Below are positions 1,152-25,420 of a stretch of 25,420 nucleotides of DNA, piece by piece. Numbering within the stretch: position 1 is the first letter of the stretch; the number at the start of each line of letters is the position of its first letter. The stretch lies in assembly GCA_041690355.1 (NCBI GenBank), contig JAWLHK010000003.1, positions 297,428-322,847 of the forward strand, read 5' to 3'. The DNA is from a bacterium (GTDB lineage Bacteria > J088 > JAWLBW01). The translations under genes and the position numbers were made by a program. Below the pieces are notes generated by a model. It made no database searches. It saw only the letters and a list, made by a program, of their open reading frames with translations, and was not told the DNA's origin.

Positions 1152-1325
1152 TATCAAGTGTCGACGCCCCGCAAGCGAAAACGGCCACCCCTTTTTCCCC
1201 AGGCGGCTTGGGAATCCGCTTTCCTCCCGAGCGGCGGGCGGGATGCCGCGCCGGATCCGGCCCGCCGCGCTTGCCCCATCCGCCGTTTTCGCCGGAACCT
1301 GAGGGGAACCGGAAGGAGTCCTCTC

Positions 1326-3038
1326 TTGCGCTACATGGCCCTGGCAGCGGATTACGACGACACGCTGGCGACCGGCGGACGCATTCCCGATCGAGTCGTC
1401 GCCGCGCTCGAGCGGGTCAAGGCGACCGGACGCCGCCTGCTGCTCGTGACCGGCCGGCAGATGAGTGATCTGCGCGCCCTCGCCCCCCTCCGACTCTTCG
1501 ACCGCGTCGTGGCCGAGAACGGGGCCGTCCTCTATCTCCCCGAAACCGGCGAGGAGATTCCCCTCGCCTCCCCGCCGCCGGCCTCCTTCATCGCCGAGTT
1601 GCGCGCACGCGGCGTCGCGCCAGTGTCGACCGGGGCCGTCATCGTCGCCACCCACCGCCCGCACGAACACACGATCATGCATGCAATCTGGGAGATGGGG
1701 CTCGAGCTCCAGATCATTTTCAACGGGAATGCCGTCATGGTTCTGCCGCCCGGCACCAACAAGGCAAGCGGTCTCGGAGTCGCACTGCAGCAGCTCGGCC
1801 TCTCGCCGCACGAAGTCGTCGGGCTCGGCGATTCCGAAAACGATCACTCCCTGCTGGGCTTCTGCGAATGCGGCATCGCCGTCGCCAACGCCGTCAAACC
1901 GTTGCGGGCCGCGGCCGCCTGGGTTACGCAGGGAGAAGCGGGTGACGGCGCCATCGAAGTGGCCGGGGCGCTCGCCGACAGCGACCTCGCCTCTCTGCCC
2001 CTGCACATGCCCCACCGCGAAATTCCGCTCGGCATCGACGCATCCGGCGCCGTAGAGACCCTCCCGGTCTACGGCGTGAACGTGCTCGTCGCCGGTCCCT
2101 CAGGGGCCGGTAAGTCGACCTTCGCCACGGGCATCCTCGAGCGCCTGCGGCAGGCTGCGTACCAGGTCTGCATTGTCGATCCCGAAGGAGATTACGGCAC
2201 GCTCAAGGAAGTCGTCTCGCTCGGCAACCGCGCCCGCGCGCCGGGCATCGACGAAGTGATCAGTTCGCTGAGCAACCCGCGGGTCGACGTCGCCGCGAAT
2301 CTGCTCGGCATTCCCTTTGCAGATCGGCCGGACTACTTCATGCAGCTGCTCCCCAACCTGCTCGCCATGCGCGCCCGTACCGGACGCCCGCACTGGCTGC
2401 TGCTCGACGAGGTTCACCACTACCTCCCCGCAGTCTGGGGACTTTCGCATCTGACCATGCCGCAGAGGCTCGGCGAAACGCTGCTGCTCACGGTGCATCC
2501 CGACGAGGTCGCGCGCACGATTCTCGAGCAGGTTCACGTCGTCATCGCGGTCGGTCCCGATCCACAGGACACTCTCGGCCGCTACGCCGCGACCGTCGGC
2601 GAACGCGCGCCACAGTGGCACGGCGATCCGCCGCAGCGCGGAGAATTCGTGGTCTGGCGCCGCCGCATGCAGAAGCCGCTGCAGAAGCTGCGCACGATTC
2701 CCGGGCACACCGAACGTTTGCGCCACCTGCGTAAATACGCGGAAGGGGATCTGGGGGCCCGCAGCTTCTACTTCCGCGGACCGCGGGATCGGCTGAATCT
2801 GCGCGCGCAGAATCTGGTGCTCTTCTGCCAGATCGGCGAGGGGGTCGACGAAGATACCTGGCTGCACCACCTGCGCAACGGCGATTACGCGCGCTGGCTG
2901 CGCGAGGCCATCAAGGACGAGCCGCTCGCCGCCCGGGCCGATGCTCTCGCGGCCCGCGCCGACGTCACGGCGCGCGAGAGCTACCGCGTCCTGCGCACGG
3001 CCATCGAAGAGCGCTACATCCTGCCGCCCCTGCCCTGA
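1326..3038 (+). CDS. HAD-IIB (Cof-type) phosphatase fused to a P-loop NTPase and a C-terminal helical domain
   Basis: Start reassigned to TTG 1326 (AGGAG SD 7 nt upstream). HAD motifs DYDDT, VTGR, NK, GDSENDH; Walker A GPSGAGKS; Walker B LLLDEVH. 570 aa. Confidence 0.85.
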   Translation: MRYMALAADYDDTLATGGRIPDRVVAALERVKATGRRLLLVTGRQMSDLRALAPLRLFDRVVAENGAVLYLPETGEEIPLASPPPASFIAELRARGVAPVSTGAVIVATHRPHEHTIMHAIWEMGLELQIIFNGNAVMVLPPGTNKASGLGVALQQLGLSPHEVVGLGDSENDHSLLGFCECGIAVANAVKPLRAAAAWVTQGEAGDGAIEVAGALADSDLASLPLHMPHREIPLGIDASGAVETLPVYGVNVLVAGPSGAGKSTFATGILERLRQAAYQVCIVDPEGDYGTLKEVVSLGNRARAPGIDEVISSLSNPRVDVAANLLGIPFADRPDYFMQLLPNLLAMRARTGRPHWLLLDEVHHYLPAVWGLSHLTMPQRLGETLLLTVHPDEVARTILEQVHVVIAVGPDPQDTLGRYAATVGERAPQWHGDPPQRGEFVVWRRRMQKPLQKLRTIPGHTERLRHLRKYAEGDLGARSFYFRGPRDRLNLRAQNLVLFCQIGEGVDEDTWLHHLRNGDYARWLREAIKDEPLAARADALAARADVTARESYRVLRTAIEERYILPPLP

Positions 3039-5167: not shown

Positions 5168-6043
5168 ATGGCGCAGATTCTCGACGGCAAGGCACTGGCC
5201 CAGCGACTTCGCACCCGCATGGCCGAGCGGGTCGCGCGGCTGCGCGACGACAAGGGAATCCTTCCGGGCCTCGGCGTCATTCTCGTGGGCGACAACCCGG
5301 CCAGCCAGGTCTACGTGCGCAACAAGGGGATCGCCTCCCGCGACGCCGGGTTCCACTTCGAGGAGCTGCGCCTGCCCGAGAATGCCTCGCAGGACGACGT
5401 GCACGCCGCCATCGACCGCATGAACGCGGCCGCCGACATTCACAGCTACCTCGTGCAGCTGCCGCTGCCGAAGCACCTCGACGAAATGAAGGCGCTGCAG
5501 CGGATCGCCGTCGAGAAGGACGCCGACGGTCTGCTCCCCGCCAGCCTCGGGCAGCTCGTGGCCGGCCTGCCGGGACCCATTCCGTGCACGCCCCATGGCG
5601 TCATGAAGCTGCTCGAGGAAGCGCAGTGCGACCCGCGCGGTAAGCATGCCGTCGTCATCGGCCGCAGCAACATCGTCGGCAAGCCGATGGCCCTCCTGCT
5701 CCTGCGCGCCGACGCCACGGTCACCATCTGCCACTCGCGCACCCCCGACCTGCCCGCCGTCGTGCGCGGCGCCGACATCGTGGTCGCCGCCGTGGGCCGC
5801 GCCCGCATGGTCAAGGGAGACTGGCTGAAGCCGGGCGCCGTCATCATCGACGTGGGCATGAACCGCGACGAACAGGGGAAACTCTGCGGCGACGTCGATT
5901 ACGATTCCGCCAGCGCCGTCGCCTCGGCCATCACGCCCGTCCCCGGCGGGGTCGGGCCGATGACCATCGCCATGCTGCTCGAGAACACCTTCCAGGCCGC
6001 GCTGCGGGCCGCCGGCGTTTCTGACGCGGGCGCCTACGCATGA
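5168..6043 (+). CDS. folD: Bifunctional methylene-THF dehydrogenase / methenyl-THF cyclohydrolase
   Basis: [41 protein letters not shown] motifs. Confidence 0.97.
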
Positions 6044-6810
6044 AGACGCTGCTTCTGCTGTGCGCCCTCGTGGCCGCCGATGCCGGCATGTGGCGCTATG
6101 AAGACGCCGCCGGCAACGTCAACTTCACCAATAACCTCGACGCAGTTCCGCTGGAATTCCGCGCCAAGGCGACCCGCTTCGAGCCGCGCTCCGACCGGGT
6201 GCAGAGCGAGGCCGCCCTCGGCGCCGGCGGGATCGCCGCCTATGCCTCGCAGAAGGAACTCGACGAGGCGGCCGCGCTCACCCAGGCCCAGGCTGAAGAG
6301 CGGCTGCGCGCGGGCCGGCTGACCGAGGCCCAGGTGCGTTATCTGGTGGAGCGCGGCGTGCTGCGCACCTCGGCGCTGGGCGACACGGTGCGCTCGGGCC
6401 GGACACAGGCAGAACTGGCCGCCGAGCGCGCGCAGGCAGCGAAGGCTGCGAACGAGGATCCGCTCGGGCTCGGCAAGCTGGCCGTGCCGATGGCCAGCCC
6501 GCAGGGTATCCGCGAGCGGCTGCGGCCGATTACCGAGAGCCCCAAGTTCCGCTGGTCGCTGATCGGCGAGGGGGTGCTCATGGGCATTCTCATCGTCGCC
6601 CTCCCCTTCGCGCTGCGCAAGTACCATGAAGACGGCACGCGCCGCATCGTGCGTCTCTCTTTCATCTTCATCTTCGTCATCATCTCGGCGACGGGGAACC
6701 TCGTGCTCTTCCGCGACGAAATCGCACTGCTCTTCGGCGTCGCGAAAGACGTGCAGACTGCCGGCGCTCCCCAGCCTCCGAACCCATCCGGAAAGAATCA
6801 TGAGCGATAA
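6040..6810 (+). CDS. Membrane protein: signal peptide, DUF4124-like N-terminal domain, two C-terminal TM helices
   Basis: [15 protein letters not shown] signal, [14 protein letters not shown] motif, two hydrophobic helices. ATGA overlap with folD and 11-nt overlap with gcvT; high GC3. Confidence 0.75.
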
Positions 6811-7915
6811 GAAAACTCCGTTGAACGCGACGCACCGCAAGGCCGGGGCGCGCATGGTCAGCTTTGCCGGGTGGGACATGCCCGTGCAGTACGCCGGCGT
6901 CATTCAGGAACACAAGGCCGTGCGCGAAAAGGCGGGCCTGTTCGACGTCAGCCACATGGGCGAGATCTGGGTGACCGGGCCCAATGCGGCCGCCGTCTGC
7001 CAGCATCTGATCACCAACGATGTCGGCCTGCTGCAGGAAGACGGCCAGATCATCTATTCCGCCGTGTGCCAGCCCGACGGGGGAACCGTGGATGACGTGC
7101 TGCTGCACCGCATTTCGCCGACGGAATACCTGTTTGTCGTGAACGCCGCCAACATCGACAAGGATTTCGCCTTCTTCTGCGAACACGCGCCGCAGGGGGC
7201 CGAGCTGACGAACCGTTCGGACGACTGGGGGCAGCTCGCCCTGCAGGGTCCCCTGAGCCAGCAGATTCTGCAGCCGCTCGTCGACGTCGCGCTCGACGAC
7301 ATCGCCTACTACACTTTCAAGCCGGCCACGATGGCAGGGATCCGCGGATTGCTGGCCCGCACGGGATACACCGGCGAAGACGGCTTCGAGCTCTACGTGC
7401 CGGCCGACCGCGTGGTGGAACTCTGGAACAAAGTGATGGAGGCCGGCGCTCCCCAGGGGCTCGAGCCCATCGGTCTCGGCGCCCGCGACACGCTGCGCCT
7501 CGAAGCCGGCTATTCCCTGTACGGCCACGAGCTCTCGGCCACAATCACCCCCCTCGAGGCGAACCTCGGCTGGGTGACCAAGCTCGACGGCGACGATTTC
7601 GTGGGCCGCGACGCTCTGCGCAAGCAGAAAGAGGCCGGCATCCCCCGCCAGATCGTCGGCTTCCGCTTCACGGGCCGGGGCGTGCCGCGCGACGGCTACC
7701 CGGTGTGGAAGGGGGACGAGCAGCTCGGCGTCGTCACCAGCGGCACCATGAGCCCCATGCTGCAGACCGGCATCGGCCTGGCCCTCGTGAAGCGCGGCTC
7801 CCTGCAGGACGGGGACGCGCTCGACGTCGAAATCCGCGGAAAACGGTTTCCGGCCGTGGTCCAGCGCCCGCCGTTCGTCCCCTCGAACGTCCGGCGCAAG
7901 CCTCGAAAGGCTTGA
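6800..7915 (+). CDS. gcvT: Glycine cleavage system T protein (aminomethyltransferase)
   Basis: Start reassigned to ATG 6800. [43 protein letters not shown]. 371 aa. Confidence 0.97.
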
Positions 7916-7942
7916 CACAGCCGAAATCCGATCCTGTACAAT
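7912..7942 (+). promoter_or_regulatory. Internal sigma70-type promoter for gcvH (TTGACA-N19-TACAAT)
   Basis: Consensus -35 overlapping the gcvT stop and a near-consensus -10; the spacer is long (19 nt). Confidence 0.55.
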
Positions 7943-8015
7943 GTTCCCTTGAGCCCTCGCTTGGGCGAGCGGCCCGATAAGTACCCCGGTCTTCCGAGAA
8001 AGGAGCATCCCGGAA

Positions 8016-8426
8016 ATGGATTTTCCGAAGCATCTCAAGTATACGCGCGAACACGAATGGGCCCTCATCGAGGGCGACGAAGTGACCGTCGGCATCACCG
8101 AATACGCGGCTGAAAAGCTCGGCGACGTCGTCTACGTCGATCTCCCCGAAGAAGGCGACTCGCTCGACGCGGGCGGCACGTTCGGCGCGGTCGAAAGCGT
8201 GAAGGCCGTAAGCGATCTCTACTCCCCGATCACGGGAACGGTCAAGGAGATCAACAAGTCGCTCGCCGACAGCCCCGAGGTCATCAACGAAGACCCGTAC
8301 GTCGAGGCGTGGATGGTCAAGATCACCGTCGACGATCCCGACGAGCTCGAAGACCTGATGACGGCCGAAGCCTACGCGGCCTACATCGCCGAGAGCAGCG
8401 AAGAAGGTTCTGACGAAGAGGAATAA
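8016..8426 (+). CDS. gcvH: Glycine cleavage system H protein
   Basis: YTREHEW, lipoyl-Lys motif [23 protein letters not shown]. Confidence 0.97.
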
Positions 8427-8447
8427 GGGCACGTCCCCTGTTCCGCA

Positions 8448-8500
8448 CGGCGCAGCATTCGCCCCGGCTCCGGTCGGCGCGGATCCTGCGCTGTTTTTCT
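8448..8500 (+). terminator. Hairpin plus U-tract between gcvH and gcvP
   Basis: CGGCGCAG...CTGCGCTG outer stem with an inner CCGG/CCGG stem, followed by TTTTTCT. Confidence 0.5.
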
Positions 8501-8546
8501 TATCCGCCCCGTGCCGATGCGGCTTCCGGCGCCGGGCGCACCGCCA

Positions 8547-8575
8547 TTGACGGCCGCACCGCCCACCGGCATCCT
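8547..8575 (+). promoter_or_regulatory. Putative promoter for gcvP (TTGACG-N17-CATCCT)
   Basis: Good -35, 17-nt spacer, weak -10; 33 nt upstream of the ATG. Confidence 0.45.
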
Positions 8576-8608
8576 GTTGAATTACGATTTTTTTCCTGCG
8601 AGTCATCC

Positions 8609-11518
8609 ATGAGTCAGCGTACGCGTCTTTTCGAATCCACCGATCGTTTCGTCGACCGCCACCTCGGGCCCCGCGAAAGCGAGCTGCGCGAGATGCTCGA
8701 CACCCTCGGCTACCGCACGCTCGACGAACTCATGGACGCCACGCTGCCGGCGGGGATCCGCAGCCGCACGCCGCTCGACCTCGAAGCGCCGCGCAGCGAG
8801 TTCGAGGCCCTCGCGGAACTGAAGGGCATTGCGGAACGCAACCAGATTTTCCGCTCCTTCATCGGCATGGGCTATCACGACACGGTCGTGCCGCCGGTCA
8901 TCCAGCGCAACATCCTCGAGAATCCGGGCTGGTACACGCAATACACGCCCTATCAGGCCGAGATCGCGCAGGGGCGCCTCGAGGCGCTGCTCAACTTTCA
9001 GACGATGATCATCGATCTGACCGGCCTCCCCATTGCGAACGCCTCGCTGCTCGACGAAGGGACCGCCGCCGCCGAAGCCATGACGATGTGCATGGCCGCC
9101 AAGGCGAAGCGGAAGGATTCCCCGCGCGCCTTCTTCGTCTCGGAATCGTGCCACCCGCAGACCATCGAAGTCGTGCGCACGCGCGCCCGGGCGCTGGGAA
9201 TCGAGGTCATCGTGGGGAACCATGAGGCCTTCGACTTCCACAAGCCGGTCTTCGGCGTGCTGCTGCAGTACCCGGCCACCGACGGCGTCATCTGGGACTA
9301 CCGGGCCATCATCGACAAGGCGCACGAGCACGGCGCGCTGGTCGTCCTGGCGGCCGACATTCTGAGCCTCACGGTGCTCACGCCGCCGGGGGAACTCGGG
9401 GCCGACATCGCGGTGGGCAACACGCAGCGTTTCGGCGTGCCCCTCGGCTTCGGCGGACCCCACGCCGCCTACATGTCGACGAAGGACGAACACAAGCGCA
9501 TCATTCCGGGGCGCATCGTCGGCGTCTCGCGCGACGTCGACGACAAGCCGGCCATCCGCCTGGCGCTGCAGACGCGCGAGCAGCATATCCGCCGCGACAA
9601 GGCGACGAGCAACATCTGCACGGCCCAGGTTCTGCTGGCCATCATCGCGTCGATGTACGCCGTCTATCACGGTCCGCACGGGCTGCGGAAGATCGCCGAG
9701 CGCGTCCACAGTCTGGCCCGCGTCGTCGAGAAGGGGCTGCGCCGTCTGGGCTACGACCTGCCGGCCACGCCGTACTTCGATACCCTGCGCGTGAACCTGG
9801 GCAAGATTGACCAGGATTCCCTCTTCCGCTTCGCCGCCGAGCGCCGCATGAACCTGCGCGCCCTCGACAGCCACCACGTCGGCATCGCCCTCGATGAAGC
9901 GGTGACGCGCGCCGACGTCGTCGCGCTCTTCGAAGTCTTCGCGCAGGCGGCCGGCAGCACGGTCGACTTCACGCCCGAGGATCTGGCCGAGGACGTCGGC
10001 TTCGACGCCGAGGCCTTCTATGCCCGCCGTTCCGCGTACCTCGAGCATCCGGTGTTCAACAGCTACCACTCCGAAATGGAGATGCTGCGCTACATCCACC
10101 GCCTGCAGAACCGCGACCTGTCGCTCACGACGAGCATGATACCGCTCGGCTCCTGCACGATGAAGCTGAACGCGACGGCCGAGATGTATCCGGTTACGTG
10201 GCCGGAATTCGGCCGTATCCATCCCTTCGCGCCCGCGGAGCAGACCCACGGCTACCGCCAGATGCTGCAGCAGCTCGAGCAGATGCTCATGGAGGTGACC
10301 GGTTTCGCCGGCATTTCGCTGCAGCCGAACGCCGGCTCACAAGGGGAATATGCGGGGCTGCTCGTCATCCGCCGTTACCACGAGAGCCGCGGTGAAGCGG
10401 AACGCAACGTCTGCCTCATCCCTAGCTCGGCCCACGGTACGAACCCGGCCAGCGCCGCGCTCGCCGGCATGAAGGTCGTGGTCGTCGAGTGCGACAACCA
10501 GGGGAACATCAACGTGGCCGACCTCAAGAAGAAAGCGGCCGAGCATGCCGCAAACCTGGCCGCGCTCATGGTCACCTATCCGTCGACCCACGGCGTCTTC
10601 GAGGAATCGATCGAGGAGGTCTGCGCCGTGGTGCACCAGCACGGCGGGCAGGTCTATATGGACGGCGCGAACATGAACGCCCAGGTCGGTCTCATCCGCC
10701 CGGGGGAATTCGGTCCCGACGTCTGCCACCTGAACCTGCACAAGACCTTCTGCATTCCGCACGGCGGCGGCGGCCCGGGCATGGGCCCCATCGGCGTGGC
10801 GGCGCATCTCGTCCCCTTTCTTCCCGGTCATCCCGTCGTGACCATCGGCGGCCCGAACGCCATCGGTCCCGTCTCGGCGGCCCCGTGGGGAAGCGCGAGC
10901 ATCTTGCCGATCTCGTGGATGTACGTGCGCATGATGGGGGGCGAGGGGCTGCGCAAGGCGACCCAGGTCGCCATCCTCAACGCCAACTACATCGCGGCGC
11001 GCCTGGCCCCGCACTACCCCGTGCTGTACAAAGGGAAGCATAACCTGGTCGCCCACGAGTGCATCTTCGACACGCGCCACTTCAAGGAGACCGCGGGTAT
11101 TGAAGTCGAGGATATCGCCAAGCGCCTGATGGACTACGGCTATCACGCGCCGACGATCTCCTTCCCCGTTCCGGGCACGCTCATGGTCGAGCCGACCGAA
11201 AGCGAATCGAAGGCGGAACTGGATCGCTTCTGCGACGCCATGATCGCCATCCGCCAGGAGATCCGCGATATCGAGGAAGGCCGCGCGGATCGCGAGCGGA
11301 ACGTCGTGAAGCTGGCGCCGCACACGGCCGAGCAGGTGCTGCGCGAGACGTGGAACCGCCCCTACTCGCGTGAGCAGGCGGCTTTTCCGGCCGCGTGGGT
11401 GCGCGAGAACAAGTTCTGGCCGGCGGTCGGCCGCATCAATCAGGTCCTGGGCGACCGGAATCTGATCTGCGCGTGTCTGCCGATCGAGGCGTACGCGAGC
11501 GACGGGAGCGATTCCTGA
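8609..11518 (+). CDS. gcvP: Glycine dehydrogenase (decarboxylating), single-chain P protein
   Basis: 969 aa; [35 protein letters not shown]-Lys in [16 protein letters not shown]. Confidence 0.98.
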
Positions 11519-11859: not shown

Positions 11860-12521
11860 ATGACCAAGGAGATATTTTCGCCACGCTATGTCCGCCTCCT
11901 GGCCCAGGAGATGCGCCGGAACCCGACCCCGACCGAAAAAATGCTCTGGCAGAAGCTGCGGCGTGGCAACCTGAACGGCATCGGCTTCAAACAGCAGGAG
12001 CCGATCGGCCGGTACATCGTCGACTTCCTCGCCCCCCGACTAAACAGGGTGTTGAAATATTCCCGCGAGCGCGCACATGGTGCGTTTTCAGGCGGCGGCA
12101 AGGCGCGACAAGGAGTCGATGTGGTGCATCGGCGACGAAGGCGCAACGAAGCAGCCGCCTAGAAAAAGCCCTGTGCCCTGAAAGGGTTAGGGCCGGCATG
12201 GCCGCATCTACTGCGTTGCCGCGTCTCGACAGACCACCGGTATGCCTTCGACGCGGACGCCTTGCATCTGCAAGCCATGGCGGCCCTAACGCGCCGCGCG
12301 TGATATTTCAACGCCCTGTTAACGCCGTCATCGAGATCGACGGACCTGTCCACGATCTTCGTAAAGATTACGACGGACTTCGAGACGAATGGCTTCTGGC
12401 AAACGGTTATCGGACGCTTCACATCTCTGTCGACGACGTGGAATCAAGACTCCACGCTACGCTGGCCACCATTCTGCAATTCTGTACCGAGAGACCGGCT
12501 CACACCATCGACCAGTCCTGA
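11860..12521 (+). pseudogene. DUF559 (Vsr-like PD-(D/E)xK) endonuclease interrupted by a MITE
   Basis: N-half MRRNPTPTEKMLWQKLR...FKQQEPIGRYIVDF and C-half VIEIDGPVH...D..RDEWL...GYRTL lie in different frames. Deleting 12043-12320 joins them into an intact 127-aa ORF (...APRLNAVIEIDG...). Confidence 0.92.
12043..12320. mobile_element. 278-bp non-autonomous MITE with 18-bp terminal inverted repeats
   Basis: Left end AACAGGGTGTTGAAATAT (12043-12060) and right end ATATTTCAACGCCCTGTT (12303-12320) match 17/18. No transposase; sits exactly in the DUF559 break. Confidence 0.92.
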
Positions 12522-14741: not shown

Positions 14742-15824
14742 ATGTCGGTCCGATTCGTCGATCATCCCCCCCGCACCGTCGAATTCATGCGCGAAGACGC
14801 GCCCGCCGCCGCGCGGCAGGCCGAGCGGATCGCGGAAATCTTTCAGACCCCGCTGACCGGCAGTTACGCCTGGGATTATGCGACGGCCGACGAGAAGATC
14901 CGGCGCCTGTACCGTCTGGGCAAGGAGCTCAACTGGAACGCCGAAGTCGACATCGACTGGAGCTACACGTATCCGCGCAGCGAGCCGCCGGGCGATCCCA
15001 GCTTCAACCCCTTCGTGGGCGTGGACTACTATGAAAGGCTGAGCGAAGAGAAGAAACTCGAGTTCGGCTGGCACATCCACGCATGGATGCTGTCGCAGTT
15101 TCTGCACGGCGAACAGGGGGCCCTGCTCGTCGCCTCGCAGCTCGTGTCCTGCGCGCCGACGATTGAAGCGAAGTTCTACGCTTCGTCGCAGACCTTCGAC
15201 GAGGCCCGCCACGTGGAGGTCTTCTCGAAGTACCTGATGGAGAAGGTGCGCTTCATGTACCCGGTCAACCGGCACCTGAAGGCGCTGCTCGACAAGGTGC
15301 TCACCGATCCGCGCTGGGACCTCAAGTTCATCGGCATGCAGATCATCATCGAGGGACTCGCCCTCGCTGCCTTCCAGACGCAGAAGCTGATCTCCAACGA
15401 CCCACAGCTCAAGACGATCATCGAATATGTGCTGCGCGACGAATCCCGGCATGTAGCGTTCGGCGTGACCTACATGGAGGAGTTCGTGAAATCGCTGCCG
15501 CCCGAGGAAGTCGAGGCGCGTGCCATGTTCGCCTACGAGGCCTGCGTCGTCATGCGCGAGCGGCTGATCGCGACCGACGTCTTCGAGTACTTCGGGTGGG
15601 ACGTCGAGGATGCGCGGCGCAAGGTGCTCGAGGCCTCGATCATGGCCCAGTTCCAGAACCTGCTCTTCACGCGGATCATTCCGAACCTCAAGCGCGTCGG
15701 CCTGCTCACCGCGACCGTGCGCCCGCTCTACGAAAAGCTGGGGATTCTGGAATTCGAAAACCTCGTGGATGACGGCGAAATTGACTGGGCGGCCCTCAAG
15801 GCGCCCGTACAGACGGCGGTCTAA
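14742..15824 (+). CDS. Ferritin-like diiron oxygenase (AurF-related)
   Basis: Diiron ligand pattern FLHGEQGAL / DEARH / IIEGLAL / DESRH; AAGGAGG SD; 360 aa. Confidence 0.88.
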   Translation: MSVRFVDHPPRTVEFMREDAPAAARQAERIAEIFQTPLTGSYAWDYATADEKIRRLYRLGKELNWNAEVDIDWSYTYPRSEPPGDPSFNPFVGVDYYERLSEEKKLEFGWHIHAWMLSQFLHGEQGALLVASQLVSCAPTIEAKFYASSQTFDEARHVEVFSKYLMEKVRFMYPVNRHLKALLDKVLTDPRWDLKFIGMQIIIEGLALAAFQTQKLISNDPQLKTIIEYVLRDESRHVAFGVTYMEEFVKSLPPEEVEARAMFAYEACVVMRERLIATDVFEYFGWDVEDARRKVLEASIMAQFQNLLFTRIIPNLKRVGLLTATVRPLYEKLGILEFENLVDDGEIDWAALKAPVQTAV

Positions 15825-15983: not shown

Positions 15984-16018
15984 TTGGCATCTGCCATTTG
16001 CGATCTGCCACCTGACTA
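15984..16018. repeat. Degenerate heptamer repeat (YTGCCAT-like) x5 overlapping the TauE stop
   Basis: TTGGCAT CTGCCAT TTGCGAT CTGCCAC CTGACTA. Confidence 0.65.
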
Positions 16019-16759
16019 TTTGAATCCGCGCAGCAGCATCCACGCGCCGAGCGCAAGAAGAAGCACCGAGACCACCTGGCGGAACCGGTGGCGGGGGATG
16101 CCGCGCAGGAGCGGCCCCCCGGCCAGCGTGCCGAGGACAACACCGGCCGTCGCCGCTCCGATCGCGAGCGGGTGGCTCACCATCGTGGAACCGTGGATTG
16201 CCGCGTAAACGGGGAGGCGCGCCAGATCGACGGCGAGCGCGATGGCCGTGGCGGTGGCGACGAACGCTTCGCGTCCGACCCCCAGGCCAAGCATGGCGGC
16301 CGCGCGGATACCCCCCTGGTTCCCCACCAGCCCGCCGAAGAGTCCCGACAGGCCGCCGGCAACCCATGCCGCCTTCCCGCGGAAGACGAAGCGGTCGGAC
16401 CATCCCGTAATGCCCGAGACGCCGGCGAACAGGAGCAGTACAGCGAAGACGCCCGTGAAGACGCCGGGGGGGAACGGGCCGTGCAGCAGCGCGCCGACCA
16501 GCCCGCCCGCGGCGCTCATGAGGCCGAAACCTTTGAGAACCTGCCGGTCGATGTGCGCGCGCCACATCCACAGCCGCAACGCCGTACCGAGAAAGTGGGG
16601 GATGGCGATCAGGGCCACTGCCTGATCGGTCGGAAGCGAAAGCGCGACCAACGGCGTGAGCAGGCTGCCGATGCCGAAGCCGGCGATGGAGGCAACCGCG
16701 CCGGCGACGAGGCCGACCGCCAGCAGACCAGCCAGCATTTCGGGGGACAGAATTTCCAA
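16016..16759 (-). CDS. TauE/SafE (TSUP) family membrane transporter
   Basis: About 8 TM helices with internal duplication (AGFGIGSLLTP / GGLVGNQGG; REAFVAT). TTG start with GGAG SD. Confidence 0.9.
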   Translation of the reverse strand: MEILSPEMLAGLLAVGLVAGAVASIAGFGIGSLLTPLVALSLPTDQAVALIAIPHFLGTALRLWMWRAHIDRQVLKGFGLMSAAGGLVGALLHGPFPPGVFTGVFAVLLLFAGVSGITGWSDRFVFRGKAAWVAGGLSGLFGGLVGNQGGIRAAAMLGLGVGREAFVATATAIALAVDLARLPVYAAIHGSTMVSHPLAIGAATAGVVLGTLAGGPLLRGIPRHRFRQVVSVLLLALGAWMLLRGFK

Positions 16760-16825
16760 GACATGCTCCGGGGATCACCGTAGCACAGGCGCGGAACGGG
16801 TGCGAGCGGAACGCCTTCCGGGCGC

Positions 16826-17557
16826 TCAGCGAACCGGCTGCCGGGTCGCGGCCAGCACCGCCCCGGCCCCATCGAGGCGGAGGAGGGACCTTCCCGGTTC
16901 CGTCAGCAGCGCGAGCTCTTCGCGGCGCAGGGCCGTCCATCCGCGCCGGAGCGGATACGAGCAGAAACCGGCCACCTCGGCCTCGTCCAGACGCAGCGTG
17001 AAGTGGAAGAGTCCGTGCCCCCGGCGATAGGCCATCAGACGTTCGCCGTCAAAGAGGATACAGTTGAGGCGTGCCGTGGGGTTCGCGCGGGCAATGCCGC
17101 TGGTCAGCCGCAGCATCCCCCCCTCGCCCTCCGCTTCCACCTCGGCGCGGGCGGCGTGGAAGAAGACTTCACTGTCGGTGTCCCCGCGGGTCGCCGGGCG
17201 GAATCGATCGCGCAGGGACGCCGTGACCGGATTCACGATGGTGCCGTTGTGCGCGAACATCCACGGCCCGTGCGTGAACGGCTGCAGGTTCTCGAGGCAG
17301 ATGCGTCCACGCGTCGCCCGGCGCACGTGGATGAGGACGAAACCGGACCGCAGCGCGCGCACCCGGCGAAGAAACTCGTCGTCTTCAACGACCCAGCGCA
17401 GCCGGTGTTCGGCCCGCGGCGCATTCCCCTCGTACCAGCCGACGCCCCAGCCGCTGCGGTGCCGCCGGCAGCGGCGCTGGAACTCTTCGGGAAGGTCGCC
17501 GTGGAGCACCGCCGCGACGGCGTCCGGGTCGCCCCACAGCGCGAGCATTCTGCACAT
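16826..17557 (-). CDS. Class II glutamine amidotransferase-like Ntn hydrolase (EgtC/YafJ/Dug3-like)
   Basis: True start MCRML (N-terminal Cys nucleophile) coupled to the upstream stop by TGATG. H..GWGVGWY, HVRRAT.G, N.QPF, FAHNG, GDTDSE. 243 aa. Confidence 0.92.
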   Translation of the reverse strand: MCRMLALWGDPDAVAAVLHGDLPEEFQRRCRRHRSGWGVGWYEGNAPRAEHRLRWVVEDDEFLRRVRALRSGFVLIHVRRATRGRICLENLQPFTHGPWMFAHNGTIVNPVTASLRDRFRPATRGDTDSEVFFHAARAEVEAEGEGGMLRLTSGIARANPTARLNCILFDGERLMAYRRGHGLFHFTLRLDEAEVAGFCSYPLRRGWTALRREELALLTEPGRSLLRLDGAGAVLAATRQPVR

Positions 17558-18723
17558 CAGGCGATCTCGCGGAAGAGCTGCTCGAACTCGCCGGCCCCCA
17601 TCGGGCGCGGATTGTCCGGATGGCAACCGTCGGCGCAGGCGCCGGCCACGAGGCGCGCCAGATCCGGTGCGTCGATCCCTGCCGCGGCCAGATCCGCCGG
17701 CATGCCTATGTCGGAGAAAAGCGCTTCCAGTTCCGCGTGGAACCAATGACCGGCGTCCTCGCCGGCGGGAGCGCCGGCCGCGCGGCCCAGGTCGCGCAGG
17801 CGCTCGGCCGTCGCCGCGTCACCCGCGCCGTTGTAGCGGACGACCGCCGGCAGGCAGAGCGCGTTGGCCGTTCCGTGGTGCAGACCGTGGACCGCCGAAA
17901 TGGCGTGCGCCATGGAATGGCAGGCGCCGAGCCCCTTCTGGAAGGCGATGGCCCCCATCATTGAAGCCAGCATCATCCACGACCGGGCCTCGACGTCGTC
18001 GGGCTCGCGCACGGCGGTGCGCAGATGGCGGAAGCCGTAGCGGACCCCCTGCAGCGCAATGGCGTCGGCGACGGGGTGGAATCCGCGGGCCACGTAGGCC
18101 TCGATGGCATGCGTGAGCGCATCGGCCCCCGTGGCCGCCGTAAGCCATGCGGGCATGCGCAGCGTGAGCAGCGGATCGCAGACCGCCATGCTGGGAATCA
18201 GGTTGCCCGCGAAAAGAATGATCTTGCGCCCCGTGGCGGGATTCTCGATGACCGCGCTGCGGGAGACTTCGCTTCCCGTACCCGCCGTCGTCGGCACGGC
18301 GATCATCGGCGGAAGCGGGTGCACCACATTCCGCCCGCCTTCGGCGGCGTCGTAGCGCTCGAGCGGCGCCTCGTGGTTCACCAGAAGGCGAATACCCTTG
18401 GCGGCGTCGAGCGGACTGCCGCCGCCGACGGCCACGATCAGATCGGCCACGGCCTCCTGATAGGCCTGCAACCCCTCGACGACATTGCCGACCGTCGGGT
18501 TCGGCTCGACGCCGTCGAACACGGCGGCCTCGAGCCCGGCGCGCTGCAGTTCGCGCACGACCTCGTCGGCGATTCCAGCGGCACGCACCCCGCGATCGGT
18601 GACGATGAGGGCGCGCTTCCCCAGCGCCGCCGCTTCGGAGGCCGCGGTGCGCAGGACGCCGGGGCCGAAGCGCACCTGCGTCGGAAACGCGAACCGCCCG
18701 GTCATCGATTCCCACGTCAGCAT
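17557..18723 (-). CDS. Iron-containing (group III) alcohol dehydrogenase
   Basis: GGGSPLDAAK, PTTAGTGSE, and metal ligands DALTHAIE, HSMAH, HHG. Start ATG 18723; 388 aa. Confidence 0.94.
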   Translation of the reverse strand: MLTWESMTGRFAFPTQVRFGPGVLRTAASEAAALGKRALIVTDRGVRAAGIADEVVRELQRAGLEAAVFDGVEPNPTVGNVVEGLQAYQEAVADLIVAVGGGSPLDAAKGIRLLVNHEAPLERYDAAEGGRNVVHPLPPMIAVPTTAGTGSEVSRSAVIENPATGRKIILFAGNLIPSMAVCDPLLTLRMPAWLTAATGADALTHAIEAYVARGFHPVADAIALQGVRYGFRHLRTAVREPDDVEARSWMMLASMMGAIAFQKGLGACHSMAHAISAVHGLHHGTANALCLPAVVRYNGAGDAATAERLRDLGRAAGAPAGEDAGHWFHAELEALFSDIGMPADLAAAGIDAPDLARLVAGACADGCHPDNPRPMGAGEFEQLFREIA

Positions 18724-18743
18724 CCCTGCCCCCTTTCGGCTTC

Positions 18744-20153
18744 TCACGCCGATTCGAAATAGCGGGCCAGCTCCCAGTCGGTCACCGACCGCGCGTACTG
18801 CCGGCACTCCCAGAGCCGCGTGGCGGCGAAGTGATCGACGAAGGCGTCGCCGAGCATGGCGCAAGCCGATTCGCTCGCACGCAGCTGCTCGGCGGCGGCG
18901 GCGAGCGAGCGCGGGAACTCGAGGACGGCGGAACTGCCGTAGGCGCTCCCCCGCGTGGGTGCGGGCGGCTCCAGGCGCTCGCGCCACCCCTCGATACCCA
19001 TGGCGACGGCGGCGGCCAACGCAAGATACGGATTCGCATCGGCGCCCGGCAAGCGGAACTCGAGGCGGCTCGACGCCGTCGCCGAAGGGATCAGGCGCAC
19101 GGCGGTCGTGCGGTTCTCCTCACCCCACGTGGCCGCCGTCGGGGCCCACGTATTCTCGACGAGACGCTTGTAAGAGTTGACCGTCGGCGCCACGAGGGCC
19201 AGATAGTCGCGCATGCCGGCGACCATGCCGCCGACGAACCGGTCCAGATCGGCGGAACCGTCGGCCCCTTGGCGGAACCGGTTGCGGCGCACGGCCGCGT
19301 CCCACACGCTCAGGTGGATATGGCCAGAACAGCCGGGCAACTCCGGATTCCACTTCGCCATGAAGCAGGCCGTCAGCCCCTGCCGGCGCGCAAGCTCCTT
19401 CACGCACGCCTTGAAGAGAGCCGCCTTGTCGGCGGCGGCGAGGGCGTCGTCGTAGCGGATGGCCGCTTCGTAGACCCCCGGACCCGTTTCGGTGTGCAGC
19501 CCTTCGAGCTCGATGCCGGCCCCGGCGAGTTCATCGAAAAGCCGGTTCACGAACTCCGCATGTTCCCCCGCGCGAAGCAGACTGTAGCCGAACATGCCGG
19601 GGGAGAGCGTTTCGAGGTTGCGGAATCCTTTCGCGCGCAGGCTCTGCGGCGTCTCGCGGAAGACAAAGAACTCGTACTCGAAACCGACTTTCGCCGTGGC
19701 GCCTTCCTTGTGCAGGAGCCCGAGGACGCGCTTGAGCACCTGGCGCGGACAGACCGAAAGCGGCTCACCCGTCTTCGGGTCCCAGAAGTCGGCGAGGAAA
19801 AATGCGGTCCCCTCGTCCCAAGGGAGCAGGCGGCGCGTATCGAGATCGATGCGGGCGAGCGTATCCGGATAGCCGGTGTGCCAGCCGGTGAACTCGAGCC
19901 CGTCGATGAGGGTGTCGGCGCTGTCCCAGCCGAAGATGACGTCGCAGAAGCCGAATCCATCTTCGAGTACGGAGAGAAATTTTGCCGTCGACACGATCTT
20001 GCCGCGCAGGATGCCGTCGATGTCGAATCCACCGAGGCGGATGCGCCGGACATGATGCTCGGCCAGCCACGCGCGAATTTCTCCATCGTCGATTTTCGCC
20101 TGCCCCGGCGCCCTGGCCTGTCCCGGTACGATTCTGGCGACCGATCTGCCCAT
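18744..20153 (-). CDS. Glutamine synthetase-like gamma-glutamyl-amine ligase (GlnA4/PuuA type)
   Basis: DIDGILRGK, GFEYEF, HTETGPGVYE, GCSGHIHLS, ENRT, RLEFRLPGADANPYL. The flap reads ENTWAP rather than the GYEAP of true GS. Start ATG 20153. Confidence 0.92.
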   Translation of the reverse strand: MGRSVARIVPGQARAPGQAKIDDGEIRAWLAEHHVRRIRLGGFDIDGILRGKIVSTAKFLSVLEDGFGFCDVIFGWDSADTLIDGLEFTGWHTGYPDTLARIDLDTRRLLPWDEGTAFFLADFWDPKTGEPLSVCPRQVLKRVLGLLHKEGATAKVGFEYEFFVFRETPQSLRAKGFRNLETLSPGMFGYSLLRAGEHAEFVNRLFDELAGAGIELEGLHTETGPGVYEAAIRYDDALAAADKAALFKACVKELARRQGLTACFMAKWNPELPGCSGHIHLSVWDAAVRRNRFRQGADGSADLDRFVGGMVAGMRDYLALVAPTVNSYKRLVENTWAPTAATWGEENRTTAVRLIPSATASSRLEFRLPGADANPYLALAAAVAMGIEGWRERLEPPAPTRGSAYGSSAVLEFPRSLAAAAEQLRASESACAMLGDAFVDHFAATRLWECRQYARSVTDWELARYFESA

Positions 20154-20175
20154 GCGAACCCTTTTTCCCTTCCCC

Positions 20176-21723
20176 CTAGCGGCCCTCGTGAATCCAGACC
20201 GCCTTGGTCGTCGTGTACTGTTCGAGCGCATGGTGGCCCATGTCGCGTCCGAAGCCGGAATGCTTGACGCCGCCGAAGGGGGCGCCGCTGTCGAAACCGT
20301 TCCACAGATTGATCCAGACGGAACCGGCCCGCATCGCCCGGGCCATGCGCAGCGCGCGACCGGTGTTGCCCGTCCACACCGCGGAGACCAGCCCGTAGAG
20401 CGTGTCATTGGCGAGCTCGATCGCCTCCTGCTCATCGGCGAAGGGGAGCACAGCCAGCACCGGGCCAAAGATTTCATCCTGCGCGATCGCCATGTCGCTG
20501 GTCACCTCGGCGAAGACCGTCGGCGCATAGAAGTTCCCCCTCCGGCGCTCTTCGTCGCTCAGCCGCTCGCCGCCGCAGCACAGGCGCGCCCCCTCTTTGA
20601 GCCCTGCATCCACATAGTGCTGAATCCGCCGCAGCTGCAGTTCACTGATCTGCGCGCCCATGTCGGTCCGCTCGTCGAGGGGATCGCCGACGCGCATCGT
20701 GCGGGCGCGGGCAACGACCCGGGCGAGGACGTCGTCGTAGATTTCGCGCTGCACGAGCAGGCGGCTCCCCGCGTTGCAGATTTCGCCCTTGTTCGCGAAG
20801 ATCGCCTTCCACGCCGCTTCGCAGGCGGAATCGAGGTCAGCATCCGCAAAAATGATGTTCGGCGACTTGCCCCCGAGCTCGAGCGACAGCGGCTTCAGAT
20901 TCGAGTCGGCCGAGGCATAAAGCAGGCTGCGCGCGGTGCGTACCGATCCGGTGAAGGCGAGTTTGTCGACTCCGTGATGCCGGGCGAGAGCATGGCCGGT
21001 GGTGGCGCCGCGTCCGGGAACTATGTTGACGAGGCCGTCGGGAATGCCGGCCTCCTGAAGAATGGAGGCGAGCCGCAGTGCGGTCAGCGGCGTATACTCG
21101 CTCGGCTTGAGTACCACGGCGTTTCCGGCGGCGAGAGCCGGCGCGAGCTTCCACGCCGCCATCAGCAGCGGATAGTTCCACGGAATGATAGCGCCGACGA
21201 CGCCGGCGGGTTCGCGCAGGGTCAGGCACAGGTGCGGCCCTGATACCGGGATGGTCTCGCCCTCGATCTTGCGCGTCCACCCCGCGTAGTAGCGGAAGAT
21301 GTCGATGGCGGGGGGAAGATCCCCCTGCAGGGCTTCGCGCACGGTTTTCCCATTGTTGAGCGACTCGAGGCAGGCGAGATCGAGGGCGTCGCGTTCGAGG
21401 AGATCGGCGATGCGCCAGAGGATGCGCTCGCGCTCGGCCCCCTCCATGTTCCGCCAGAGGGGCTGTGTGGCCTGGGCCGCCTGCACCGCTTCGTCAACCT
21501 GGATGGCGGTCGCCTCGGCCACATCGGTCAGCCGCTCGCCGGTCGCCGGATTCCAGACCGCGAGCGCCTCGCCGTCCCCTTCGCTCCACCGGCCGCCGAT
21601 CCAGAGTCGCTGCGCGGGCAGGTCGCGCGCCAACGCCTGCGCACGTTCTCTGAAGCTTGTCACCGGCTCGCTCTGCGGATCGCTCTGTCGCTCGCCCTTC
21701 CGCTCGATCTGCGCCCCTTGCAT
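20176..21723 (-). CDS. NAD(P)-dependent aldehyde dehydrogenase
   Basis: IIPWNYP, KPSE, FTGS, catalytic LELGGKSP and GEICNAGS, EIFGP, PFGGVKHSGFGR. Start may be up to about 20 codons later. Confidence 0.95.
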   Translation of the reverse strand: MQGAQIERKGERQSDPQSEPVTSFRERAQALARDLPAQRLWIGGRWSEGDGEALAVWNPATGERLTDVAEATAIQVDEAVQAAQATQPLWRNMEGAERERILWRIADLLERDALDLACLESLNNGKTVREALQGDLPPAIDIFRYYAGWTRKIEGETIPVSGPHLCLTLREPAGVVGAIIPWNYPLLMAAWKLAPALAAGNAVVLKPSEYTPLTALRLASILQEAGIPDGLVNIVPGRGATTGHALARHHGVDKLAFTGSVRTARSLLYASADSNLKPLSLELGGKSPNIIFADADLDSACEAAWKAIFANKGEICNAGSRLLVQREIYDDVLARVVARARTMRVGDPLDERTDMGAQISELQLRRIQHYVDAGLKEGARLCCGGERLSDEERRRGNFYAPTVFAEVTSDMAIAQDEIFGPVLAVLPFADEQEAIELANDTLYGLVSAVWTGNTGRALRMARAMRAGSVWINLWNGFDSGAPFGGVKHSGFGRDMGHHALEQYTTTKAVWIHEGR

Positions 21724-21945
21724 GGTCCCTCTCCGATGTCAACGCACGCTGCCGACGGCTCGTGGAGCTGTCGCGCGAAGCTTCGGCGATCATAGCACGG
21801 GCCGTCGACGAGCAGAACGGGGGAGACGGACGCGAGGGTCGGAATCCAGCCCCCCGTCTGACCCCCCGCCCCGGCGGTGACGGCATGCCGTGTTCCGGCC
21901 CGCGGTTTCCGGCTACCATGGCCCCGTGCATGCCGGGAGGTGAGG

Positions 21946-22353
21946 ATGGAACCTGATTTGAAGCGGAGAACCGAGAAGCGGCGAATCGCGGCCTACGCGA
22001 CCTTCGGCGCGGGCCTGATCGCGCTGTTCGTCGGCGTGCTCGTCGCCATGTATTTTGCGAGTCTCGCCGGGGTGATCGTGAGTCTCGTCGTCGCGGCCGC
22101 CCTGTTTCTCGCGACGTTCATGCTCGGCGGCGCCGCCTGGGGGCGCTTCGAGACGGGCCAATCGGTGCCCCGGGACGCGCTCCCGGCGCGCGACGCGCCC
22201 ACGCGGGTCCGGCCGCTGCGCGAGGAGACTTCGTTCAGCACGCCCCCGCCACCGCCGCGGGTTGAAACCATCGAGCGGACGCCGGGCGGGCCCGGCAGCA
22301 GCGAGGCAGGCAGCGACGAGGTCGGCCGCGGTGAGGGACGACAGGCACCCTGA
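21946..22353 (+). CDS. Two-TM membrane protein with Pro-rich tail
   Basis: Start ATG 21946 after GGAGGTGAGG; two hydrophobic helices, then a disordered tail containing TPPPPP. 135 aa. Confidence 0.7.
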   Translation: MEPDLKRRTEKRRIAAYATFGAGLIALFVGVLVAMYFASLAGVIVSLVVAAALFLATFMLGGAAWGRFETGQSVPRDALPARDAPTRVRPLREETSFSTPPPPPRVETIERTPGGPGSSEAGSDEVGRGEGRQAP

Positions 22354-22916: not shown

Positions 22917-23345
22917 ATGAGCGCAGATGCAGCCCGCGGACTGTGGTGGATCGGATATCTGCTGACGATTACGGCGACATTCGTTTTCGCCGTCGCCGTC
23001 GTGCCGGCGATTTACAGTGAGACGACCGACGTACCGCAGCTTCTCGAGATGAGCCTCTTCGTGACCGGCGGTCTCCTGCTTTTCGCCGTGCTCACCGGCG
23101 GAGCAGGTTACTGGTTCTTCCAGAAGGAGCGTACGCAGCCCCAGGGTTCGCGGGACAGCTCCCGCGCCGGCGCGCCCATGCCGGTTCGCGCGGCACCCCG
23201 GCCGACGGAAAGCGTCACCGGTACCACCGATGTCGATGGAGAGCACCTCGTGCGCGGCACCGGCGCCCTGAACCCCGAGGAACCGCCGGCGCCGAATCCG
23301 CAGGAGCGGCGCGAGACGATCCTCGACGACGATCGAGCACGCTGA
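22917..23345 (+). CDS. Two-TM membrane protein with Pro-rich tail
   Basis: GGAGAG SD; two hydrophobic helices, then a disordered tail. 142 aa. Confidence 0.72.
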   Translation: MSADAARGLWWIGYLLTITATFVFAVAVVPAIYSETTDVPQLLEMSLFVTGGLLLFAVLTGGAGYWFFQKERTQPQGSRDSSRAGAPMPVRAAPRPTESVTGTTDVDGEHLVRGTGALNPEEPPAPNPQERRETILDDDRAR

Positions 23346-25330: not shown

Positions 25331-25340
25331 CACAAAAAGA

Positions 25341-25420
25341 CCCGGCGACGACCTACTCTCCCGGTCACGATAGTGACAAGTACCATTGGCGCAGAGGGGC
25401 TTAACTGCCGAGTTCGGGAT
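25341..25420 (-). rRNA. rrf: 5S rRNA, 3' two-thirds (truncated by window edge)
   Basis: Reverse complement reads AUCCCGAACUCGGCAGUUAAG...GCCAAUGGUACU...GGGAGAGUAGGUCGUCGCCGGG. Confidence 0.97.

Follow-up and report, generated by a model that had tools for sequence, protein, structure and literature searches.

A gamma-glutamylation operon in which an EgtC-like Ntn hydrolase may stand in for the class-I deglutamylase

Gamma-glutamylation is a common route by which bacteria detoxify or use amines, and its last step, the removal of glutamate, is known for hydrolases of the class-I glutamine amidotransferase fold (class-I GATase; PuuD-like) or of the formylglutamate amidohydrolase (FGase) type. 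Here we describe an operon on a 25,420-nucleotide stretch of bacterial DNA (contig JAWLHK010000003.1 of assembly GCA_041690355.1; the whole stretch is called the window below), which forms the final 25.4 kb of contig C3 in a genome of 4.64 Mb. The operon encodes an aldehyde dehydrogenase (ALDH), a glutamine synthetase (GS)-like ligase, an iron-containing alcohol dehydrogenase (Fe-ADH), a stand-alone N-terminal nucleophile (Ntn) hydrolase of the class-II GATase type, and a TauE/SafE membrane protein. The best-supported reading, to which we attach moderate probability, is that the Ntn hydrolase has taken the place of the class-I GATase/Peptidase_C26 (C26) deglutamylase of a gamma-glutamylation route without being its orthologue, because it sits at the C26 position, belongs to a rare subfamily whose distant relatives lack such partners, and is encoded in a genome that has no full-length C26 and keeps its FGase in another module. 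We refer to the window's own genome as G000 and to a sister genome as G001; other G and L numbers denote sampled genomes and loci, and P numbers denote proteins.

In the ethanolamine pathway of Chromohalobacter salexigens, Phaeobacter (MED193_10026-10056), and Streptomyces coelicolor (GlnA4, SCO1611-1615), Table 2 of PMC9397018, together with PMC10132767 and PMC6529630, places enzymes of PF00120, PF00465, PF00171, and PF05013. As described there, that pathway shares its logic and three of its four enzyme families (PF00120, PF00465, and PF00171) with the window operon, but its deglutamylase is an FGase (PF05013) whereas the window has an Ntn hydrolase. The FGase-ligase-ALDH-FeADH-EamA cluster on a Ruegeria conchae plasmid matches these published ethanolamine operons. 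Both of its oxidative partners are present in the window, but the window Fe-ADH and ALDH share just 38% and 31% identity with the Ruegeria enzymes, and the window operon, unlike the ethanolamine pathway, has no TRAP transporter or ethanolamine permease.

The Puu pathway of Escherichia coli (PuuA, PuuB, PuuC, and PuuD) also shares gamma-glutamylation, oxidation to an acid by a PuuC-type ALDH (PuuC is 43% identical to the window ALDH), and deglutamylation with the window operon. It differs in that PuuA is 31% identical to the window ligase and lies on a long separate branch, in that PuuB is a flavoprotein that oxidizes an amine rather than an Fe-ADH acting on an alcohol, and in that PuuD is a Peptidase_C26. 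We rejected an assignment of the operon to the Puu pathway on the ligase's score against the gamma-glutamylputrescine synthetase (PuuA) model NF045547 (204 bits against a cut-off of 650), on the absence of an oxidase from the operon, and on the absence of a full-length C26 from G000. The Ipu (isopropylamine) clusters on plasmid pTC1 of Paenarthrobacter aurescens have ipuC-annotated GS-like ligases that are 41 to 42% identical to the window's and carry the same tryptophan at the flap. They also carry a P450, a ferredoxin, and a class-I GATase, none of which is found in the window. Their ligases form a separate clade, and on this ground, together with the lack of a P450 or ferredoxin in the window, the ligase was rejected as an IpuC.

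The closest fold to that of the window hydrolase is EgtC (PDB 4zfj, 4zfk, and 4zfl), the gamma-glutamyl amidohydrolase of ergothioneine synthesis, a stand-alone class-II Ntn protein of the same type with a Cys2 nucleophile, which cleaves a gamma-glutamyl amide. The window protein differs in being 24 to 25% identical to EgtC, in having no egt neighbors, and in belonging to a long-branched clade of its own within GATase_4. It was rejected as EgtC itself, scoring 74.4 bits on the EgtC model TIGR03442 (cut-off, 218.65) with no egt genes beside the operon; the EgtB- and EgtD-like genes of the genome lie on another contig, C1. A full-text literature search, which was not exhaustive and excluded supplements, found no paper in which a pathway built on a GS-like ligase is linked to a hydrolase of the Ntn or EgtC-like type.

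The operon is real. The five window genes are co-directional, with gaps, in the order ALDH, ligase, Fe-ADH, Ntn, and TauE, of 22, 20, −1, and 66 nt, and the stop codon of the Fe-ADH gene overlaps the start codon of the Ntn gene (gccTGATGtgc), so the two are translationally overlapped. On these points the coordinates and Pfam matches (Table 1) agree with the initial annotation, which had listed the five genes, their shared direction, and the same spacings. A Shine-Dalgarno-like GGAGAGGGA lies upstream of the ALDH ATG. There were no terminator-like sites in the four junctions; the five such sites between positions 15700 and 22600, where 4.1 were expected, are all intragenic or outside the operon. 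A consensus scan revealed no sigma-70-like promoter, and an Rfam scan of the window found no riboswitch, glycine riboswitches included.

We then looked at how the hydrolase position is filled in related clusters, taking some 8 kb to either side of the ligase gene in 20 genomes. A total of 112 open reading frames (ORFs) were scanned from the eight loci whose ligases are at least 48% identical to the window's, which belong to the ligase clade called clade A below, and 96 of 142 from the other twelve, where the 46 most distant from the ligase gene were set aside. To recover genes overlooked in ORF picking, the loci were also searched by tblastn in six frames, with hydrolase, ADH, and ALDH sequences as queries. 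A class-I GATase/Peptidase_C26 gene was found at four of the eight other clade-A loci (G297, G142, G082, and G040), an Fe-ADH gene at six, and an ALDH gene at five. In both G142 and G297 the order is ALDH-ligase-FeADH-C26, which is the order of the window with the Ntn gene swapped for C26. The remaining arrangements were ligase-FeADH-C26-ALDH in G082, ALDH-FeADH-ligase-GATase1 in G040, and ALDH-ligase-FeADH, with no hydrolase, in G210. Among the twelve more distant loci, a class-I GATase was present at nine and an Fe-ADH at two, and neither an FGase nor an Ntn gene was found. Class-I GATases thus occur at 13 of the 20 ligase loci.

Plasmids showed further arrangements: ligase-ALDH-FeADH-class-I GATase in Legionella lytica, ligase-ALDH-class-I GATase in Burkholderia vietnamiensis G4, and, in Rhodobacteraceae M382 (L190 7125-10784), FGase-ligase-ALDH together with an aminotransferase and a P1-family peptidase. 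The M382 ligase is 46.5% identical to that of the window, which is in the clade-A identity range, although it lies outside our tree; because it is paired with an FGase, both FGase and class-I GATase may occur with such ligases. An Ntn gene occupied the hydrolase position in the window and in G001 and at no other ligase locus examined. The position is therefore variable, since C26/class-I GATase, FGase, Ntn, or nothing at all was found there. These surveys bear out the suggestion that the Ntn protein is a non-orthologous deglutamylase to the extent that an EgtC-like enzyme fills the place held by a class-I GATase/Peptidase_C26 in related clusters. The deglutamylase types that the initial annotation had named for known clusters were right as well, with FGase in the published ethanolamine clusters (PMC6529630 and PMC9397018) and class-I GATase at the sampled loci. 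As a separate observation, the clusters of G142 (L156 3387-12266) and G297 (L155) are flanked upstream by a pyridoxal phosphate (PLP) aldolase gene of the Beta_elim_lyase family and downstream by an APS kinase gene.

Compared directly, the clade-A clusters with a class-I hydrolase (G142, G297, G082, G040, and the L. lytica and B. vietnamiensis G4 plasmids) have ligases 45 to 53% identical to the window's, with the same F179/P264/W327 pocket except for C179 in Burkholderia. Their Fe-ADH proteins are 38 to 49% identical to that of the window, and an ALDH is present, but clade-A cluster ALDHs come from another subfamily (29 to 35% identical), G210 being the exception at 53%. The fold of the hydrolase sets them apart, being class-I GATase in these clusters and class-II Ntn in the window. 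Our literature search found no substrate for the clade-A clusters.

The Ntn protein begins M-C-R. Among 53 GATase_4 sequences, a family to which E. coli YafJ belongs, M1 and C2 are nearly invariant and R79, N104, G105, D128, S129, and E130 are invariant. We take the Cys2, Arg, Asn-Gly, and Asp residues to be the class-II nucleophile, the arginine binding the glutamine carboxylate, the oxyanion hole, and the aspartate binding the amino group, as in PurF and GlmS. An AF2 model of the protein (pLDDT, 93.7) gave EgtC as the best PDB fold (4zfk, 4zfj, and 4zfl; TM score, 0.70 to 0.79), followed by the glutaminase domain of GlmS. All members of its subfamily tested scored between 71 and 87 bits on the EgtC model.

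In the collections searched, this subfamily is very rare. A word-indexed search yielded six relatives at 45 to 51% identity, the next being at 34% (385 matches among 5454 candidates). When 1.84 billion representatives were searched exhaustively with a profile, 5990 matched at E<=1e-3 and 45 at E<=1e-30; only four representatives reached at least 167 bits (440, 377, 245, and 167), and the generic family level lay at or below 151 bits. Searching genome contigs identified one relative, at 49% identity, in L001 (= G001), and a metagenome scan detected relatives at 38% identity or less and none of the subfamily itself. In a 54-row tree, the window protein, its G001 counterpart, six metagenome proteins, and a second copy from contig C22 of G000 formed one clade on a long branch (support, 100). 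Loci with more distant GATase_4 genes were also inspected with the window proteins as queries (E<=1e-10), and none of the 114, 65 of which were at least 6 kb long, has a ligase, Fe-ADH, or ALDH gene.

G001 is the only genome of the same family among those examined. Three others share the phylum, and none of the three has a match to the ligase at E<=1e-60. On one strand of the 7.2-kb G001 contig, an ALDH gene truncated at the contig edge is followed by the ligase, Fe-ADH, and Ntn genes; TauE and gcvP genes lie on the other strand. The Ntn gene starts 2 nt after the Fe-ADH gene, and gcvP is separated from the cluster by the TauE gene only. Identities to the window proteins are 64% for the ALDH, 63% for the ligase, 58% for the Fe-ADH, 49% for the Ntn hydrolase, and 72% for GcvP. 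Two metagenome contigs probably hold both ligase and Ntn genes as well: the longest contigs recorded for P0127 and P0011 share a size of 18945 nt, and those for P0131 and P0010 a size of 25568 nt, with shared sources. The initial annotation had proposed surveying neighborhoods for the same five genes; ALDH-ligase-FeADH-Ntn is indeed kept in G001, but the TauE orthologue is not.

The ligase falls below the cut-off of every NCBIfam GS or PuuA model, its scores including 229.5 bits for type III GS (cut-off, 469.6) and 217.9 for GlnA (cut-off, 429). In an alignment to E. coli GlnA, every metal, ATP, and glutamate residue examined is retained (E129, E131, E212, E220, H269, H271, R321, R339, R344, E357, and R359) and the ammonium site is altered (S53E, Y179F, N264P, and E327W). 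The tryptophan, in the motif ...KRLVENTWAPT..., aligns with Glu327, the flap residue of E. coli GlnA. The only other PF00120 gene of G000, on contig C12, encodes a true GS (444.6 bits) in which D50, S53, Y179, N264, and E327 are intact. With its catalytic residues intact, its ammonium site altered, and a true GS encoded elsewhere in the genome, the protein looks like an active gamma-glutamyl ligase for a substrate other than ammonia. An assignment as glutamine synthetase was rejected on the same loss of the ammonium site and presence of a true GS elsewhere. W327 is found in all 16 clade-A rows printed in our alignment, in both IpuC-type ligases, and in one clade-B ligase (L165), while the FGase-linked Ruegeria type has F. 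The tryptophan noted at the GS flap is thus present as first described and aligned to Glu327, but its diagnostic value is lost, since IpuC-type and clade-B L165 ligases have it too. P264 and F179 each occur in all but one of the 16 clade-A rows (S264 in Pseudorhizobium and C179 in Burkholderia); the pocket of the FGase-linked Ruegeria ligase is E179, V264, and F327.

To place the ligase among its relatives, we built a 46-row tree (quick IQ-TREE with SH-aLRT support, rooted on the GS of G000) from the ligases of the window and G001, five of six close metagenome proteins, 10 arbitrary picks from a set at 53 to 60% identity, 20 genomic loci, seven plasmid ligases, and PuuA. The sixth close metagenome ligase was left out, being identical to that of G001. 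The window ligase (P0001) groups with the ligase of G001 and the five close metagenome proteins in a seven-row clade (support, 100), which is nested in the 28-row clade A (support, 97). A different clade, of 14 rows, contains the FGase-linked Ruegeria ligase; the two Ipu-type ligases make up another clade, and PuuA sits on a long branch whose position is uncertain. GlnA4 and the Pseudomonas IpuC are not among the rows, and GmaS was compared by PDB score alone. G284, a presumed actinomycete that was examined for a GlnA4 orthologue, has an FGase gene that is not near any PF00120 gene.

Scored by sequence against solved structures, the window ligase gave 268 bits with 11zs, entitled a Brucella melitensis "glutamine synthetase," 243 with 5dm3, 169 with GmaS (9qur), 155 with a 1-naphthylamine enzyme (8wwu), and 81 with 4hpp. 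We take 5dm3 to be the C. salexigens enzyme. The FGase-linked Ruegeria ligase scored 793 bits with 5dm3 and 550 with 11zs, and so both structures belong to the FGase-linked group. The window ligase was rejected as an orthologue of the known ethanolamine gamma-glutamylases on the gap between 243 and 793 bits with 5dm3, its separate clade, and its different pocket. The phylogenetic comparison called for at the outset separates it from PuuA, the Ipu-type ligases, and the FGase-linked ethanolamine type.

Relatives of the ligase in a collection of 5.8 billion proteins comprise six at 63 to 66% identity (P0126-P0131) and then a very large set at 53 to 60% (among the best 120 of 8000 scored). In a domain-wide sample of 401 genomes, 25 match it at E<=1e-60; ten of these, G000 and G001 included, do so with at least 48% identity, and the other 15 with 33 to 40%. 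A further 88 plasmid records match, the best at 45 to 49% and Ruegeria at 35%. Clade A is apparently a separate and uncharacterized clade of ligases.

The ALDH also lies below every NCBIfam equivalog cut-off, the best match being BADH (545 bits against 669), with PuuC at 469 against 850; it is 64% identical to the partial ALDH of G001. The best NCBIfam match of the Fe-ADH is 4-hydroxybutyrate dehydrogenase (372.6 bits; cut-off, 500). This protein is 44 to 49% identical to the Fe-ADH of five clade-A clusters and 38% identical to those of L160 and L176, and a tblastn search of G000 at E<=1e-8 returned no second match to it. We propose that the two enzymes are a gamma-glutamyl-aminoaldehyde dehydrogenase and a gamma-glutamyl-aminoalcohol dehydrogenase, respectively.

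As we infer its activities and the order of its steps, the operon would catabolize a primary amine bearing a hydroxyl group, an amino alcohol, through transient gamma-glutamylation. The GS-like ligase would couple the amine to the gamma-carboxyl group of glutamate at the expense of ATP, the Fe-ADH would turn the alcohol of the resulting gamma-glutamyl amide into an aldehyde, and the PuuC-like ALDH would turn the aldehyde into an acid. The EgtC-like Ntn hydrolase, with its N-terminal Cys, would then cleave the gamma-glutamyl amide to release glutamate and an amino acid.

The pairing of an Fe-ADH with an ALDH implies that the amine bears a primary alcohol. If this pathway is right, ethanolamine, giving glycine, is the leading single candidate for the substrate, one that we regard as possible rather than probable. 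Its plausibility comes from the gcv genes near the operon in both genomes: in the window, folD, gcvT, gcvH, and gcvP lie 4.5 kb from it, and in G001 gcvP adjoins the cluster. No EutB was found in G000, a genome rated 100% complete. The PLP aldolase gene just upstream in G142 and G297 encodes a protein of the threonine-aldolase superfamily and is a weak hint of glycine (76 bits; cut-off, 230). Against ethanolamine stand the kinship of the two genomes, the 35% identity of the ligase to the FGase-linked ethanolamine type, from which it differs in clade and pocket, and the best profile matches of the two dehydrogenases, which are the 4-hydroxybutyrate enzyme for the Fe-ADH and BADH and aminobutyraldehyde dehydrogenase for the ALDH, all below cut-off. 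Since the ligase is not orthologous to the ethanolamine enzymes, it is the gcvTHP synteny alone that speaks for this substrate, and a longer amino alcohol is possible. The amino-alcohol-to-amino-acid pathway first suggested, by comparison with GlnA4 and Chromohalobacter, is supported in part, as a gamma-glutamylation operon of the protect-oxidize-deprotect type.

The Ntn protein might instead merely travel with the operon, acting as a glutaminase, as an EgtC-type enzyme for EgtB and EgtD, or on some unrelated gamma-glutamyl compound while the product of the pathway is cleaved by an enzyme encoded elsewhere; we think this unlikely. Several observations lean toward it or otherwise weigh against our main reading. 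No C26, FGase, or Ntn gene was found within about 8 kb at four of the eight other clade-A loci (G210, G286, G062, and G238), so that a deglutamylase may be encoded elsewhere or be unneeded. G000 has an EgtD-like gene (288.2 bits; cut-off, 290.9) and an EgtB-like gene on contig C1 at about 420900 to 423100 (L205 6898-9142) with no EgtA or EgtC gene beside them, and because of this pair an EgtC-like role for the Ntn protein is formally possible. A second member of the subfamily, 40% identical, lies on contig C22 (1440-2219; L125) beside an aldo-keto reductase gene, outside any ligase cluster, and its place in the tree is with metagenome members of the subfamily rather than with the operon copy. 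G000 and G001 belong to one family, and so their gene order and gcv neighborhood may be inherited rather than selected, and the adjacency of Ntn and ligase genes counts as roughly one event. The probable linkage on the metagenome contigs is read from their equal sizes only, and no characterized or solved clade-A ligase was found, the best PDB scores being 236 (for the L. lytica plasmid enzyme) to 268 bits. What tells against a mere passenger is the coupling of the Ntn start to the Fe-ADH stop in both genomes, the location of the gene exactly at the C26 position of G142 and G297, the distance of the subfamily members tested from the EgtC cut-off, and the two metagenome contigs that appear to carry both genes. 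G000 also offers little else to cleave the product: it has no full-length Peptidase_C26, the best match (45 bits; model positions 97-219) looking like generic class-I domains in larger proteins, and no operon-linked FGase. Its only FGase gene, outside the window on contig C7 at about 71500 to 75900 (L196 5533-9868), accompanies a GCS2-family ligase, a RimK-like ATP-grasp protein (RLAN domain), and a C39-like peptidase.

We give a small probability to the idea that the substrate is a polyamine or alkylamine, handled in the manner of Puu/Pau or Ipu, with the Fe-ADH acting on some other metabolite. The likeness of the ALDH to PuuC points that way, as do the IpuC-annotated ligases, which are closer to the window's than is the ethanolamine type, and the polyamine-type ABC transporters and aminotransferases at some clade-A plasmid loci. 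Neither a PuuB-type oxidase nor a P450 hydroxylase, however, is encoded in the operon; the Fe-ADH gene accompanies the ligase not only at six of the eight other clade-A genomic loci but also on the Legionella plasmid; and the ligase is far from PuuA in both model score and identity and separate from the Ipu clade in the tree. Hydrolysis might also precede oxidation, as in the Ipu route, where the hydrolase presumably acts before the ADH and ALDH, or the gamma-glutamyl group might serve as a carrier in small-molecule biosynthesis, a thought encouraged by an AurF-like di-iron oxygenase gene nearby. We consider either version very improbable. Without a hydroxylase, adding glutamate only to remove it immediately would achieve nothing; the AurF-like gene is convergent, outside the operon, and absent from the G001 contig, and there are no biosynthetic genes in the operon.

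Returning to the replacement of a class-I deglutamylase by the Ntn hydrolase, we also put forward, tentatively, a broader proposal: that the Ntn clade is a third, structurally unrelated class of catabolic deglutamylase, after Peptidase_C26 and FGase, giving a GATase_4 branch its first catabolic role, and that clade A defines an uncharacterized pathway for amino alcohols, different from the ethanolamine route already published, with its product feeding the neighboring glycine cleavage system. If true, the deprotection step would be evolutionarily interchangeable among three folds, and one branch of GATase_4, a large family lacking known function, would gain a testable one. It would also draw attention to the widespread clade A, which has thousands of metagenome homologues at 53 to 60% identity and is linked to Fe-ADH and ALDH genes with no known substrate. 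No major concept would change, the operon being a rare variant in a sparsely sampled lineage.

The TauE gene is probably co-transcribed with the operon, but we rejected it as a defining member of the system, to which the initial annotation had assigned it, because it is not conserved in the relatives. In G001 the neighboring TauE protein is another paralogue, 28% identical over 92 amino acids and encoded on the opposite strand, and no PF01925 match was found in the 208 ORFs scanned from the 20 ligase loci. Nor were any of the top 120 relatives of the window TauE on the 18945- or 25568-nt metagenome contigs. It has no NCBIfam match and belongs to a very abundant subfamily (7023 matches at E<=1e-10 among 8000 scored). 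G000 has four TauE genes and G001 three; some link is possible, because a TauE-family gene lies beside the cluster in both genomes, which is unlikely by chance.

Table 1. Features of the operon and its glycine/C1 context in the window
Feature	Position	Strand	Evidence or remark
ALDH, NAD(P)-dependent, operon gene 1	20176..21723	-	PF00171 602 bits
GS-like ligase (P0001), ATP-dependent, proposed gamma-glutamyl-amine ligase	18744..20153	-	PF00120 299 bits
Fe-ADH, iron-containing alcohol dehydrogenase	17557..18723	-	PF00465 175 bits + PF25137 144 bits
Ntn/class-II GATase, stand-alone, GATase_4 family, EgtC-like	16826..17557	-	PF13230 76.5 bits (cut-off 23) + PF13522 40.8 bits
TauE/SafE (TSUP) membrane protein; system membership uncertain	16016..16759	-	PF01925 91.8 bits (cut-off 32.6), residues 12-241
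Non-coding leader/promoter region upstream of operon	21724..21945	-	No ORF with family match, no Rfam family
Context: folD	5168-6043	+	Glycine/C1 block
Context: gcvT, gcvH, gcvP	6626..11518	+	Pfam GCV_T, GCV_H, GDC-P; possible sink for a glycine product

Several other features of the window were noted. A gene for a DUF4124 protein sits within the folD-gcvTHP block (5168-11518, plus strand). Downstream of that block, adjacent ORFs at 11860-12162 and 12198-12521 (plus strand) match the two halves of the DUF559 profile (positions 4-53 and 55-108) and look like a single gene split by a frameshift or stop. The AurF-like or R2-like di-iron protein mentioned above is encoded at 14742-15824 (plus strand; PF11583, 57.6 bits), convergent with TauE. 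In the 1.7 kb that separates the operon from a GT4 glycosyltransferase gene lie two plus-strand ORFs, at 21877-22353 and 22917-23345, with coding-like third-position GC contents (GC3) of 0.82 and 0.77 and hydrophobic N termini but no Pfam or NCBIfam match. A 760-amino-acid protein encoded at 756-3038 (plus strand) fuses a HAD-IIB phosphatase to a C-terminal P-loop ATPase (DUF87/HerA-like, AAA_16), an unusual combination. Finally, a 5S rRNA fragment at 25340-25420 (minus strand) is truncated by the contig end, from which it follows that the contig ends in an rRNA operon.

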